Source: Bacteroidales bacterium (lineage in GTDB: Bacteria; Bacteroidota; Bacteroidia; Bacteroidales; UBA3663). Taken from it: 64,000 nt of DNA. This document shows, piece after piece, positions 27,336-57,764 of the stretch. Every line of letters starts with the position of its first letter. Within the stretch, counting starts at the first letter, position 1. Made by a program: the position numbers and the translations under genes. The notes under the pieces were generated by a model. The model had not been told where the DNA came from and did not search any database. It saw nothing but the letters and a program-made list of their open reading frames with translations. The stretch lies in contig JAZUDJ010000034.1 of NCBI GenBank assembly GCA_045639585.1, forward strand, positions 1,303 through 65,302, in the 5' to 3' direction.

Positions 27336-27346
27336 TTTTTGAAATG

Positions 27347-27598
27347 GGAAAGGACGTCTTGCTTGCAGGACGTCCTTTCTTATATCAAGGAATGGATGTC
27401 TTGCTTGCAGGATGTCCTTTCTTATATCAAGGAACGGATGTCTTGCTTGCAGGATGTCCTATCTTATATCAAGGAATGGATGTCTTGCTTGCAAGATGTC
27501 CATTCTTACGTGTAGGAAGGTCTCGCAGGAATTCGTGTGATCCCTTCTTGCAATCAGGAAGGTCTCGCAGAGAATCGAGTGATCCCTTCTTGCACAAA
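27347..27598. repeat. tandem array A: six 42-bp stem-loop units
   Basis: Units run 27347-27388, 27389-27430, 27431-27472, 27473-27514, 27515-27556 and 27557-27598. Units 1-4 read AGGAAnGGAYGTC-TTGCTTGCAR-GAYGTCCWWTCTT. Units 5-6 keep the outer stem AGGAAGG/CCTTCTT. Confidence 0.9.
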
Positions 27599-27665
27599 TG
27601 AGAGGAAAGTGTATTAATTAATGTTATTTTTCTACTCGAAACTTGCAAGTATATTTTAAAAGGTG

Positions 27666-27684: not shown

Positions 27685-27770
27685 CGGTTTCCGATTCGGG
27701 GTGCTTGCTTTGTGCAGGCTGAGATTATACCCATTGACCTGATGCAGGTAATGCTGCCGTAGGAAGTGCT
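27685..27770 (+). promoter_or_regulatory. TPP (THI-box) riboswitch aptamer
   Basis: CGGGGTGC...GGCTGAGATTATACCCATTGACCTGATGCAGGTAATGCTGCCGTAGGAAG matches the conserved THI-box core (GGGGUGC, CUGAGA, ACCC, ACCUGAU, AAU.C..CGUAGGRA). It is followed by hairpin 27792-27826 in front of thiS. Confidence 0.88.
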
Positions 27771-27840
27771 TATTATTTCAAGACAATTTGTATACCCCGC
27801 AGTGAAGCAGTTTCGCTGAGGGGTATTAATGTTAATAATT

Positions 27841-53580: not shown

Positions 53581-53581
<1 letters not shown>

Positions 53582-54369
53582 TGAAAAGACTCTATACACT
53601 GATAATGCTGCTCCTTTCAGGGGCAGCATTATTTGCTCAATCTCACGAAGTCCTTATCAGCACTAACATGGGCAATATGCGCGTCGTGCTTTATGATGAT
53701 TGTCCAAAGACGGTTGCCAACTTCCTCGGCAAGGTACGTGCTGGCTACTATGATGACTCACTCTTCGGTCGTGTCATTCCTACCTTCATGATCCAGGGTG
53801 GTGCACCGGATAGTAAGACGGCTGGACCTGGCCAGAGCATTGGTTGGGGAGATGTCAGCGAAGAGATCCCGATGGAGACCACCCGTCATATTCCGAAGAA
53901 AGGCGCTCTCTGTGCTCCTCATCGTGACGGTGTAAGGAAATCTGATATGTCGCAGTTCTTCATCGTCGAAGGTTATCCGATGTCTGACGCAACGCTCAAC
54001 AACTGGGAGAAGACTCACAACGCTGAGGCTCGTAAGAAGGCTAAGAAAGTGGTCATGACCAAAGCGGTGGTCGATAGCCTTGATATGCTGAAGACTGTTG
54101 ACGCCAAGATGTACAACCAGCTGGCGCGTCGTGTCAATCATGACATAGACAGTATTGCACGCTCTTATCCAGGTACTCGCTTCTTCACTCCAGAAGAGCG
54201 CGAAGCCTATACGACAGTAGGCGGTGCCTACCACATCTATGGCGAATATACCTGCTATGGAGAGGTTGTCGAAGGTCTCGAAGTCATCAGCAAGATTGCT
54301 GCTCTTGAGAGCAATGTTGCAAACCGTCCTCGCACGGATGTGCGAATGAAGATTAAGGTAATAAAATGA
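53581..54369 (+). CDS. cyclophilin-type peptidyl-prolyl isomerase (secreted, with a ~90-aa insertion)
   Basis: Signal peptide; FGRVIPTFMIQGG, MSQFFIV and CYGEVVEGLEVISKI. The start overlaps the guaB stop (TAATG). Confidence 0.85.
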
Positions 54370-54397
54370 TGCTTAGACATTAAAGCATATATTCATT

Positions 54398-54608
54398 ATA
54401 ATAATAACGGACGTCCTGCAAGCAAGGCGTCCGTTATTTTATGTAGGAAAGGACATTTTGCAAGCAAGGCGTCCATTCTTATATGTGGGAATGGCTCTCC
54501 TGCAAACAAGACGTCCATTCTTTTATGCGGGAACGTCCATTCTGCAAGCAAGGCGTCCATTCTTTCGATTAAGAACGTCCGTCTTGCATGCAGGATGTCC
54601 ATTCTTTA
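54398..54608. repeat. tandem array B: five diverged 42-bp stem-loop units of the same family as array A
   Basis: The loop motif GCAAGCAAGG and its variants start at 54418, 54460, 54502, 54544 and 54586, an exact 42-bp phase. Stems are AAYGGACG/CGTCC-type and the outer stem is GGAA..TTC(T)T. Confidence 0.85.
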
Positions 54609-54609
54609 A

Positions 54610-56631
54610 TTACTTGAAGATAGCACACCAGCCACCGGCAGGAGCCAGGTTGATGTTAATCTTTTCTGAAGCTGAGACCTTGCGGGTCACGTGCTTGTAA
54701 TCCGTAGCCTCACGATCAGCGTTGATGCCATCGGTGAAGCTGTCCATGCTCACGTCAGAAGTCAGGAACTTAGAGAGGTCGATGGTCATGGTGCGAGGCG
54801 ACCAGTTGTTCATGGCTGCCACGTACCAGGTGTCACCCTTGCGACGAGCGATGGCAACGTATTCGCCCATTTCTCCGCTGAGAGGGATGGTCTCGTCGAA
54901 GGTGGTAGGTACAGCGGCAATGAAGTCGGTGCACTCCTGGTTCTGCTCGTAGTGTGTCGGCGAGTCGGCCATCATCTGGAGAGGAGCCTCGTAGATGACA
55001 TACATAGCCATCTGGTGCACGCGGGTACCCATGCTCATAGGGTGGTTGTTGTTGCCGAAGAAGTGGTCGCGGGTAGCGTTGTGCATAGCGCCTGGGGTGT
55101 AGTCGAGTGGGCCAGGGAGCATGCGGAGGTAAGGGATCGAGACGTCGTAGCGTGGCATGTCGTGCACAGGGCCATTGGCATTGCGCTGCTCCCACTTGCA
55201 GTTCTCCAAACCCTTGACGCCCTCGAAGTTGACGACGTTAGGATAGGCGCGCTGCACGCCCATTGGCTTGAGGCCGTGGTAATCTACGAGCAGGTGGTGC
55301 TTGGCAGCATACTCAGCCATCTCGTAAGCAGAGGCGATAACGATCTGATCATCACGGTCGAAGAAATCAATCTTGAAGCCTTTGACGCCAGCTTCCTTGT
55401 AGTGATTCATGTTGCGCTCCATGTCTTTGATGAGGTTGCGCCATGAGCTCCAGAGGATAATACCAACGTTCTTCTCCTTGCCATATGCCACGAGCTCAGG
55501 AATAGAGAGTTCGTCGTTGGCGTACTTGAGGAGGTCTTCTTCATCGCTCCAACCTTCATCGACGATGATGTATTCTACGCCATTCTTCGATGCAAAGTCG
55601 ATGTACTTCTTGTAGGTGAGGGTGTTGATGCCAGCGCGGAAGTCGACGTTATAGAGGTTCCAGTTGTTCCACCAGTCCCAAGCCACCTTGCCCGGCTTGA
55701 TCCATGAGGTGTCAGCGAGGCGGCACTCAGGAGAGAGGCAGAATGGGGTGTCTGTGTCGAGCAACTGAGTATCCTGCGCAGTGACAAGCACCAGACGCCA
55801 AGGCAACTGCTGGAGAGGCTTGAGGTCGGCGATGTAGTCGGCACGCTTTGTTGGCACGAGGTTCAGACGGTCGAAGCCACCTACTACGGTTTCGAGTGGC
55901 AGAGGTGCGAAGTCGGTGAGGAGCGTGTTGGCTGGGGTAGCGTCATTGCGATAAAGGAACATGCCAGGGTAGTTCTCGACGCTGGTTTCCATCACGATGG
56001 CCTTCATCTGGTTAGGCAGACAGACAGCCAGTGGAGTGATGGCTATAGAGTCAGGGAACATCTTCGAGATTGGCTGTTCGTCGTAATATGACTCAAAAGA
56101 ATAGCAGTACTTCTCGCCGCCGCGGTTGTCGTTGACGTATGGCACGAAGGCCTTGTAATCGTCAGCGAAGCAGAAAGCGTTGTTCTCGCTCACTACGCGC
56201 ACTGGCTTGTTTACTTTGCTCACGAGGCGGTATGCGCAACCGTCGTTATAAGCTCTGACCACGAGGTTGAATTCGCCGCTACATGTGAGGGTGAGCTCGT
56301 TGCAAGTCTCGTTGACGGTACTCCTTTTGTAGTTAATAGGGTTGAAGGTACGGCTGATGGCCTTCTGCTTAGCGCCTGAGATGCGGGTCTTCTCGCCCCA
56401 CTCTGTCTGCATTGTTTTCTTACCGACGCTTTTTGTGGTCTTGATGCTGATAGCCGATGGGAGAAGCACTGTGGCGCCGTCGCGCTCGATGCTCCAGGTG
56501 ATTTTCTCTGTGTCACAGACTGTGGCTTTCAGGTGGCCATCAGGAGAGGTCACGACATAGTCCTTGGCCTGCATGCTCATGCCAGTAAGGAGCAGAAGAG
56601 CGGTTAGTGATAGTGCTTTGTAGTGTTTCAT
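54610..56631 (-). CDS. GH97 glycoside hydrolase (alpha-glucosidase/alpha-galactosidase family)
   Basis: Signal peptide MKHYKALSLTALLLLTGMSMQA; IIVDEGWS; GVKGFKIDFFDRDDQ; ~670 aa. The start is set at 56631 rather than the ORF start at 56673. Confidence 0.88.
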   Translation of the reverse strand: MKHYKALSLTALLLLTGMSMQAKDYVVTSPDGHLKATVCDTEKITWSIERDGATVLLPSAISIKTTKSVGKKTMQTEWGEKTRISGAKQKAISRTFNPINYKRSTVNETCNELTLTCSGEFNLVVRAYNDGCAYRLVSKVNKPVRVVSENNAFCFADDYKAFVPYVNDNRGGEKYCYSFESYYDEQPISKMFPDSIAITPLAVCLPNQMKAIVMETSVENYPGMFLYRNDATPANTLLTDFAPLPLETVVGGFDRLNLVPTKRADYIADLKPLQQLPWRLVLVTAQDTQLLDTDTPFCLSPECRLADTSWIKPGKVAWDWWNNWNLYNVDFRAGINTLTYKKYIDFASKNGVEYIIVDEGWSDEEDLLKYANDELSIPELVAYGKEKNVGIILWSSWRNLIKDMERNMNHYKEAGVKGFKIDFFDRDDQIVIASAYEMAEYAAKHHLLVDYHGLKPMGVQRAYPNVVNFEGVKGLENCKWEQRNANGPVHDMPRYDVSIPYLRMLPGPLDYTPGAMHNATRDHFFGNNNHPMSMGTRVHQMAMYVIYEAPLQMMADSPTHYEQNQECTDFIAAVPTTFDETIPLSGEMGEYVAIARRKGDTWYVAAMNNWSPRTMTIDLSKFLTSDVSMDSFTDGINADREATDYKHVTRKVSASEKININLAPAGGWCAIFK

Positions 56632-56642
56632 AAAATAATTAG

Positions 56643-57764
56643 TTAGTAGGGTATAGTTGTAATTTGTAAGCAAATTCTGTGCATATTCTCCATTGCATTT
56701 TCCTTCCTCATCAGTTCTTCAATGGGTCTATTGTCTCCCTCATTGATTGATCGAACCTCTGAGAAACCAGCAAGGAGCAGTTCTTGTGAGTCTTCTATTG
56801 CACCAGAAAGAAGCGTGCAGGGGATACCTAGCCTTTTAGCTCTTGCAAGTACTCCCATCGGTACTTTCTTCGGAGCTTCTGCACAACTTCTTTGGTCAAT
56901 ATTTTCTCCTATTATATTATATAATGTCTGTCCATCCGTCTTGCCTTCGCCTGTCAGCACCAGGTCGGCATCTGCAATTTGCTGGTCAAAGTGGATGGCA
57001 TCAAGAAGCAGGTCTACGCCAGAGGTGAGCTTGGCGTTGAGATAGGCCATCAAGCCATAACCTAAGCCGCCTGCTGCACCTGCGCCTGGATGATTGACCA
57101 GTACGGGAGAAGCAATCCCTGCTGACTCTGTTTCTCGTGCGAAGTCCCTCAGTCTTTTGTTCAGGAGGATGACCTGCTCAGGGGTAGCACCTTTCTGTGG
57201 AGCGAAGACGAATGCTGCACCCTCAGGTCCATAGAGCGGATTGCTGACATCTGAGGCTACGATGACTTCTACAGGCAAGGGTACGTAAGGACGCAGACAC
57301 TCAATCATACCCTGTCCACCATCGCACGTGGCGCTTCCTCCTATGCCCATGATGATCTTCGTACATCCGCGGCGAATGGCGTCAAGAATCATTTCTCCAA
57401 TACCGTAGGTGGTCGTAATCATCGGGTTGCGCTTCTCCATTGGCACTAAAGTCAAGCCGCTGGCAGCCGCCATCTCCATATACGCGGTCTTCTGCTCTTG
57501 GTTCGTGCTATTACTTGATGAGAAAGAGACCGCATACTTCGCTTCAATCTCCTGCATCAACGGGTCATGAACCTTGACTGTAATCATCTCCACGTCAAGA
57601 GCCTCTGCAATACAATCCACCATTCCTTCTCCGCCATCGCTCATCGGCAAGCATACTACCTCAGCGTCCGGATAGCACTCCTGCAATCCAGAGGCTGCTG
57701 CATGGCATGCTTCCTGTGCACTCATGCAACCTTTGAACGAGTCGAAGGCGGTGATGATCTTCAT
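56643..57764 (-). CDS. glycerate kinase
   Basis: MKIITAFDSFKGCMSAQEAC N-terminus, MSDGGEG, LVLTGEGKTDGQTL. Confidence 0.88.
   Translation of the reverse strand: MKIITAFDSFKGCMSAQEACHAAASGLQECYPDAEVVCLPMSDGGEGMVDCIAEALDVEMITVKVHDPLMQEIEAKYAVSFSSSNSTNQEQKTAYMEMAAASGLTLVPMEKRNPMITTTYGIGEMILDAIRRGCTKIIMGIGGSATCDGGQGMIECLRPYVPLPVEVIVASDVSNPLYGPEGAAFVFAPQKGATPEQVILLNKRLRDFARETESAGIASPVLVNHPGAGAAGGLGYGLMAYLNAKLTSGVDLLLDAIHFDQQIADADLVLTGEGKTDGQTLYNIIGENIDQRSCAEAPKKVPMGVLARAKRLGIPCTLLSGAIEDSQELLLAGFSEVRSINEGDNRPIEELMRKENAMENMHRICLQITTIPY

Follow-up and report, generated by a model that had tools for sequence, protein, structure and literature searches.

Dispersed palindromic repeats have been much studied in Proteobacteria but, to our knowledge, hardly described in Bacteroidota, which are the dominant polysaccharide degraders of the gut. 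In Escherichia coli, BIME-2 binds gyrase and BIME-1 binds IHF, and the REP/BIME sequences of malE-malF form hairpins that set relative mRNA stability. Head-to-tail arrays are represented by the MIRUs of Mycobacterium, intergenic repeats of 40-100 bp that occur at many loci and change in copy number by whole units; they are not known to be palindromic hairpins and often overlap the flanking stop and start codons as small ORFs. The Type III ToxI arrays of ToxI/ToxN consist of structured tandem repeats of ~36-45 nt, directly upstream of the toxin gene and present once per system. Finally, bidirectional intrinsic terminators occur between convergent genes.

REPs are short imperfect palindromes that fall into GTAG/CGTC-tagged super-families of Enterobacteria and Pseudomonas (PMC3733652, PMC2817692). 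Their defining feature is an unpaired GTAG or CGTC tag at one end, and their dimers are arranged head-to-head or tail-to-tail, the head-to-tail arrangement being negligible (PMC3733652). In Porphyromonas gingivalis, the minisatellite-MITE BrickBuilt is built from 23-nt units without spacers and possesses conserved leader and tail subunits and inverted-repeat ends (PMC4596501).

The locus described here, array B, belongs to a family of 42-bp palindromic units that appears to be undescribed so far. A second member, array A, is located in the same window, the whole 64-kb stretch of DNA that was analyzed. Literature searches yielded no description of the family or its motifs, and Rfam (gathering and E-value thresholds) left it unmatched, returning only a TPP riboswitch near array A and two meaningless sub-threshold matches in array B.

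Like REP and BIME sequences, the units are short imperfect palindromes (~35 nt) in extragenic positions, near the 3' ends of genes and inside operons, and bring no gene of their own. They form mosaic arrays of several unit types as BIMEs do, and share with REPs compensatory stem changes and plausible roles in termination or mRNA stability. With a stem of 13-15 bp, a loop of 4-8 nt and 77% pairing, they correspond to the 20-40 bp stem-loop of a REP palindrome. Unlike REPs, however, they lack an unpaired end tag; the ends read (A/C)(A/G)GGAA...TTC(C/T)T, and CGTC is found only inside the stem beside the loop. Most arrays run uniformly head to tail at 42 nt, in contrast to REP dimers, and only those at loci L014 and L016 mix orientations. 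The spacing is as regular as in a BIME, whose palindromes alternate in orientation between defined linker motifs, but here the orientation does not alternate, the spacers are array-specific, and the family is confined to one narrow Bacteroidota lineage, unlike the hosts of REPs. Judged by this comparison, the arrays would work like REP/BIME elements, yet are not members of those families.

The likeness to BrickBuilt extends to the order Bacteroidales, the intergenic position, the many copies and the tandem short repeat. The family units differ in being 42 nt long and palindromic and in having no flanks common to the arrays. A MITE-like leader and tail of the BrickBuilt type was not found in the 250-nt flanks of 14 arrays; an all-against-all blastn of these flanks gave only orthologous-locus matches plus one match of ~20 nt, so that non-orthologous arrays have no common leader, tail or terminal inverted repeat. 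The head-to-tail intergenic layout is that of MIRUs, from which the family departs by its palindromes and by the lack of a coding signature. Compared with a Type III antitoxin array, array B is flanked by PPIase and GH97 genes rather than a ToxN/AbiE-type toxin gene, and many dispersed copies exist. Compared with CRISPR arrays (identical repeats, unique spacers of at least 26 nt), the units abut with spacers of ~8 nt.

Array B in the gap between two convergent genes

Array B consists of five 42-bp units in exact phase (54398-54607) and occupies the gap of ~240 bases between the convergent PPIase and GH97 genes (Table 1). It starts 29 nt past the PPIase stop codon and ends 2 nt short of the GH97 stop codon. 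The borders of about 30 and 2 nt given in the first-pass annotation, which had been made from the letters alone, are therefore sound: the two ORFs end at 54369 and 54610 and the Pfam identities agree. TRF reports the region 54406-54607 with a period of 42, 4.8 copies, 76% matches and 1% indels. Both TRF and a cut in register from 54398 confirm the exact 42-bp phase, with the loop motif TGCA(A/T)(G/A)CA(A/G) at 54417, 54459, 54501, 54543 and 54585 on the plus strand, 1 nt away from the positions listed earlier. Pairwise unit identity inside the array is 64-83%, close to the 65-80% estimated by eye. An exact-protein look-up of the PPIase sequence found no record.

Table 1. Arrays A and B and the genes on either side of array B, in coordinates of the window
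Feature	Position	Strand	Evidence and remarks
Array A, four units of the sub-family of array B, better preserved	27345..27512	+	TRF, 92% match
Array A, two units of a second hairpin sub-family (GGAAGGTCTCGC...GATCCCTTC) in the same 42-nt register	27513..27596	+	TRF, register
Cyclophilin-type PPIase gene, last of the guaB-PPIase pair	53581..54369	+	PF00160, E 2.7e-29
Array B, unit 1	54398..54439	-	-20.2 (+, z -4.7) and -19.4 (-, z -5.3) kcal/mol
Array B, unit 2	54440..54481	-	nhmmer 44 bits (minus strand); good hairpin on plus strand only
Array B, unit 3	54482..54523	-	3' arm degenerate (GGAGAGCC); weak canonical hairpin, minus strand only
Array B, unit 4	54524..54565	-	D-type, GGAC in both arms; no significant hairpin on either strand
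Array B, unit 5	54566..54607	-	D-type, symmetric loop GCATGC; short central hairpin, orientation ambiguous
GH97 glycoside hydrolase gene, convergent with the PPIase gene	54610..56673	-	PF10566, PF14508, PF14509

A profile built from four array-A units only recovered all five units of array B on the minus strand with E-values from 4.6e-9 to 2.7e-4 (unit 5 scored higher on the plus strand) and gave no other match below E 0.4 anywhere in the 64-kb window. Likewise, a profile of 76 distinct units matched nothing in the window besides arrays A and B. Since both profiles match solely these two arrays, their kinship is real and not a generic likeness of palindromes, the outcome that would have spoken against the proposed relationship; A and B are one family in opposite orientation, as had been read from their loops. 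A 24-mer family pattern occurs 8 times in the window and in none of 100 shuffles.

Folding of the units and a candidate terminator

Each unit of array B was folded on both strands against shuffled controls. The z-scores of units 1 to 5 are -4.7, -4.3, -0.4, +1.05 and -1.9 on the plus strand and -5.3, -2.5, -2.5, +0.25 and -1.3 on the minus strand. Strong hairpins are limited to unit 1 on both strands and unit 2 on the plus strand (-17.7 vs -8.4 kcal/mol on the minus strand). Unit 3 (-10.9 kcal/mol on the plus strand, in a non-canonical fold, vs -12.6 on the minus strand) and unit 5 (-10.7 and -9.8 kcal/mol on plus and minus) are weak. Unit 4 folds no better than its shuffles on either strand, and GGAC in both of its arms yields a tandem G.A/A.G mismatch. 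The array can therefore not be described as five hairpins, as it was at first, and of the plus-strand folding preference ascribed to units 2 and 3 only the part concerning unit 2 is retained. Summed over the array, the folding energies (-56 vs -54 kcal/mol) give no strand preference. Array B is regarded as a decayed copy because most of its units fold poorly; those of array A form hairpins of -14 to -24 kcal/mol.

The palindrome of unit 1 (AATAACGGACG / CGTCCGTTATT) is lengthened by A/U pairs to 54398-54442. It contains the perfect 11-bp stem 54403-54413/54428-54438 noticed earlier; the U-rich run UUAUUUUAU, thought to follow this stem, overlaps its last 5 nt instead. In the layout AUAAUAAUAA-stem-UUAUUUUAU, a stable GC-rich hairpin is combined with an A-rich 5' flank and a U-rich 3' flank, the features of an intrinsic terminator, and because both flanks surround a strong stem, unit 1 could stop transcription from both sides. 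Unit 1 is identical at 42 of 42 positions between the window and its ortholog L002, and in the ortholog L066 it has been remade with one compensatory pair change (A-T to T-A) and again a U-rich tail; both comparisons speak for the earlier suggestion of a guaB-PPIase terminator. On the grounds of sequence, folding and conservation, a candidate bidirectional intrinsic terminator for guaB-PPIase (+) and GH97 (-) is the most likely local function of unit 1. Unlike ordinary bidirectional terminators it is one member of a repeat family and not a unique hairpin. It looks as if at this locus solely unit 1, the outermost copy, does a job. A terminator-like site is also present inside unit 5 (54580-54597, +).

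The metatranscriptomes searched, including large 2026 runs, contained no reads of this organism. Logan RNA contigs from relatives include one gut metatranscriptome contig of 4218 nt with family units within ~110 nt of one end, which indicates that units of the family are transcribed somewhere; such contigs show neither strand nor 3' ends, and the depth of 320, as for any repeat-bearing contig, sums all copies and may contain DNA carried over into the RNA run.

Unit architecture and covariation across the family

The 78 units of 14 arrays follow one 42-nt register with one symmetry centre and comprise several hairpin sub-families. The plan of a unit is an arm of ~13-15 nt, a loop of 4-8 nt, the complementary arm and a spacer of ~8 nt. 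The register is kept across sub-families: the array at L018 contains 12 units of three sub-families over 504 nt with zero phase slips. Loops of the sub-families include TTGCTTGCA, GTGATTTCGGG, AGGAATTCG and CGTACGG, and one unit type resembles a terminator. The second sub-family of array A is also found at L015, L017 and L018.

Among the 76 distinct units, 77% of cells are paired at the true partner, compared to 40-50% when the partner is slid by 1-4 nt and 66% (sd 0.8%) when partners are shuffled among sequences. Covariation is seen at pairs 5/34, 6/33, 7/32, 8/31, 11/28 and 12/27 and includes full compensatory switches at 6/33 (A-T in 57 units, T-A in 12) and 11/28 (C-G in 49, T-A in 10). 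The conserved positions are themselves symmetric (GGAA..GGA..C..G / C..G..TCC..TTCC). These compensatory changes across sub-families, together with those between orthologous arrays, uphold the earlier view that the palindromic structure has been kept despite sequence drift.

The arms occur in two forms. In P units, which are perfect palindromes, the 5' arm contains GGAC and the 3' arm GTCC. D units, about a quarter of the total (20 of 78, units 4 and 5 of array B among them), carry GGAC in both arms, so that their TT-loop strand is left with a tandem G.A/A.G mismatch. The orientation of a unit that carries the central TT loop is referred to as its native strand.

Distribution of the family

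Outside the window, a species-representative genome collection was scanned with one exact 21-mer pattern. With this single pattern, true family members were found in three uncultured Bacteroidales MAGs, SGB_3601 (6 loci), SGB_5476 (5) and SGB_3790 (1), and the remaining matches in the collection are due to chance or to a different long palindrome in the MAG RUG002. The family is thus present at 12 loci in other genomes in addition to the two arrays in the 64 kb of the window, and the possibility that these two are the only loci no longer applies. One further ortholog of the PPIase/GH97 gap was found on a Logan contig (L066), and the locus is present in gut metagenome runs from 2021-2025. The 21-mer pattern gave 36 matches in 241 million metagenome records, none of them a family member, and two matches in viral contigs, both in coding sequence and due to chance; plasmids gave no blastn match to array A. 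The apparent lineage range is narrow and takes in a few uncultured gut Bacteroidales.

Orthologous arrays and sequence constraint

The PPIase/GH97 gap carries an array in the window, in L002 (SGB_3601) and in L066; the three gaps measure 239-244 nt and contain five units each that can be aligned unit to unit. Between the window and L002 the array has diverged by 13% and the spacer before it by 21%, compared to 28% and 45% at the four-fold degenerate sites of the PPIase and GH97 genes, respectively. The array divergence between the window and L066 is 34%, near neutral. A second orthologous pair is formed by L014 (6 units) and L016 (5).

The 14 orthologous unit pairs differ at 0.39 per site in their spacers, compared to 0.24 in loops and 0.21 in stems; where both partners of a stem pair have changed (18 cases), a standard pair results in 12. 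This speaks for either constraint on stems and loops or their repair by conversion, and for drift in the spacers. Unit 5 illustrates this pattern: the window and L066 differ at 6 positions, all inside the 8-nt spacer, and the 34-nt palindrome is identical. Of the selection on structure or spacing that had been proposed from the conserved period and fold, the part on structure gains from the lower divergence of stems and loops and from the paired double changes; the period on its own is a weak sign of selection, because tandem duplication in 42-nt steps followed by substitution keeps it too.

Two of the three orthologs have a D-type unit 4 and the remaining one a P-type; replacement from another copy accounts for this difference more readily than a pair of adjacent transversions would. 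Unit 5 of L002 has a 4-nt insertion. Contigs from DNA metagenomes break within the array, and their joints skip or repeat one to three units, which is consistent with unit-number variation and is confounded by other copies of the family.

In relatives whose PPIase is at most 88% identical, and in two further ones at 92% and 95%, another gene lies downstream and the array is absent. Among close relatives (L059-L067), the PPIase gene is preceded by guaB or a DUF2007 gene and followed by GH97, CinA, a WYL-domain gene, a C26/M19 peptidase gene or a HepT-like toxin gene; the 3' end of the PPIase gene is a synteny breakpoint in this lineage. In the comparison of window positions 53581-54790, the PPIase side is nearer to L002 (3-9 differences per 90 nt) than to L066 (8-20), and the 3' side of GH97 is nearer to L066 (4-7 differences) than to L002 (8-13). 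Within the array, unit 1 equals that of L002 and unit 5 is nearest to that of L066. The point of recombination appears to be located inside array B or next to it.

Genomic context and orientation

The genes on the two sides of an array are either convergent or co-directional, and a stop codon is usually 2-30 nt away. Array A follows the GH43 stop codon and precedes the promoter and riboswitch of the next operon, as can be deduced from a TPP riboswitch (57.7 bits) at 27687-27780, 90 nt past the array and before thiamine genes. Elsewhere the neighbours encode a Na/Pi transporter, a ferredoxin reductase, DUF711, an acetyl-xylan esterase, ACP/KAS, a 2-hydroxyacid dehydrogenase and a fimbrillin. 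Since these are unrelated housekeeping or surface genes, the link to glycoside hydrolases suggested by the two arrays of the window is a coincidence. In REPIN-RAYT systems the repeats flank a Y1 (IS200-like) RAYT transposase gene; among the 20 ORFs flanking arrays in the scanned MAG loci, none has a Pfam transposase domain.

A common orientation relative to the upstream gene, also suggested by arrays A and B, is not a rule of the family either. The native strand is sense in array A, in array B (relative to GH97) and at L008, L015, L017 and L003, antisense to both neighbours at L005, L006 and L018, and mixed at L014 and L016. At L005 (1255-1464), the five units of the array separate a 175-aa ORF from a gene that apparently encodes an acyl carrier protein (ACP) and whose start codon is ~28 nt away. 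The surrounding KAS-ORF-ACP-KAS string is encoded on the opposite strand, which makes this array an antisense copy within an operon. At L015 (2468-2775), the array is enclosed by two convergent terminator hairpins, one of which fills a 42-nt array slot, and at L006 (7571-7612) a separate terminator is found between gene and array. Such positions beyond canonical terminators fit a tolerated element rather than a required signal.

Origin and possible function of the arrays

We consider it probable, if not by much, that array B is a copy, by now partly decayed, of a REP/BIME-like family of palindromic minisatellites that is dispersed and restricted to one lineage, and that its unit 1 has been co-opted as a bidirectional terminator. 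Slippage or unequal recombination would add or remove whole units of an array, and occasional overwriting of units by conversion from other copies would keep the arms complementary. Both converging transcripts, guaB-PPIase and GH97, would end at unit 1 here, with a contribution from unit 2 on the plus strand, and units 3-5 would be mostly tolerated filler or at most provide weak RNA hairpins in the GH97 3' UTR. Within its family, array B is real but ordinary.

The strand asymmetry of the units could instead mean that the arrays are strand-specific RNA elements, that is, chains of hairpins formed by the native strand in 3' UTRs or operons that stop 3'-5' exonucleases or adjust the relative stability of mRNAs. 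Of 47 units, 37 fold better as the native strand (mean -14.6 vs -10.4 kcal/mol), the ratio of G.U to A.C pairs is about 2:1, and D arms are linked to the TT-loop strand 13:1, so that the tandem G.A/A.G, a stable motif, is on the native strand and pyrimidine mismatches are on the opposite one. These asymmetries hint at a strand-specific single-stranded form, for which a neutral duplex repeat has no need; inheritance from master copies may also suffice to explain them. The deeply covered metatranscriptome contig of a relative points the same way, with the reservations on summed depth and DNA carry-over given above. Against RNA elements stand the arrays that are antisense to both neighbours (L005, L006, L018) or mixed (L014, L016) and the equal summed energies of array B on its two strands, and we hold this reading possible though unlikely. 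Loops are as conserved as stems, which a plain terminator or stabilizer would not need. A further, improbable reading would make the arrays cis elements of an unrecognised Bacteroidales system, in which a structure-specific enzyme or binding protein reads one folded strand (TT loop, conserved U.G pair, tandem G.A/A.G of the D-type) and copies or stabilizes units in strict 42-nt steps; such a system would be REPIN-like, mobile or regulatory, with head-to-tail units and no GTAG/CGTC tag. Alternatively, the 42 bp of a unit, four helical turns, would place all palindromes on one face of the DNA, where a dimeric or oligomeric protein (nucleoid, gyrase-like or insulator) could dock on the duplex. 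The exact register across sub-families over up to 504 bp, the symmetric conserved positions, the conserved loops, the independence of orientation from transcription and the E. coli precedent of BIME-2 and BIME-1 agree with docking sites. A duplex reader should not, however, tolerate the D-type, which flips one arm core (GTCC to GGAC) in 20 of 78 units; arm and loop sequences differ widely among sub-families, the compensatory stem changes point to pairing or arm-to-arm correction and not to base-specific contacts, and no candidate protein was found. Duplex docking is thus judged decidedly improbable.

Two further readings carry next to no weight. As 42 nt equal 14 codons, arrays could encode small proteins of 14-residue repeats, and frame 2 of the native strand indeed contains 4 stops in 78 units compared to 10-36 in the other five frames; ORFs cross arrays A and B, and the frame is open through all 12 units of L018. 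A stop-free consensus frame is, however, expected by chance among related units, and the orthologous differences (57/44/40 at codon positions 1/2/3, with third positions not the most variable) and the codon changes (73 non-synonymous, 11 synonymous) led to rejection of the coding explanation, which is also at odds with the absence of a Pfam match and with the frame break caused by the unit 5 insertion of L002. The mechanical ORFs across the arrays (27344-27601, 85 aa, and 54458-54700, 80 aa) have neither Pfam match nor coding signature and are by-products of one frame of the 42-nt unit having no stops. Head-to-tail units of ~40 nt, each with a hairpin, also bring to mind a tandem-repeat RNA gene (a ToxI-like Type III antitoxin or a processed small-RNA array) or a CRISPR-like array. 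This is scarcely credible for a locus flanked by PPIase and GH97 with no adjacent toxin or cas gene, with copies dispersed at unrelated loci, spacers of ~8 nt, below the length of CRISPR spacers, and no Rfam match.

Implications

Through this family, a narrow lineage of Bacteroidales is seen to possess REP-like elements of its own, whose head-to-tail arrangement is unusual and strictly phased. Array B, with its three orthologous copies, represents a small natural experiment that reveals constraint on stems and loops, not on spacers. Arrays of this kind break short-read assemblies, yield spurious ORF calls such as the two above, mark recombination boundaries and may supply terminators. Should a dedicated protein read the arrays, it would open a new approach to mRNA stability or genome organisation in the Bacteroidales of the gut.

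A palindrome in RUG002

The palindrome encountered in RUG002, a MAG labelled as uncultured actinobacterium, is another and longer one with a 17-bp outer stem (CGCCCTTTGGACGCC...) and a loop of ~33 nt. The 21-mer GGACGCCTTGCTTGCAAAACG is common to this palindrome and to the Bacteroidales family, which could be the result of chance, convergence or transfer. At least 4 copies are present in the MAG, at L001 (1110-1134), L007 (4180-4204), L011 (1614-1638) and L022 (6290-6314).
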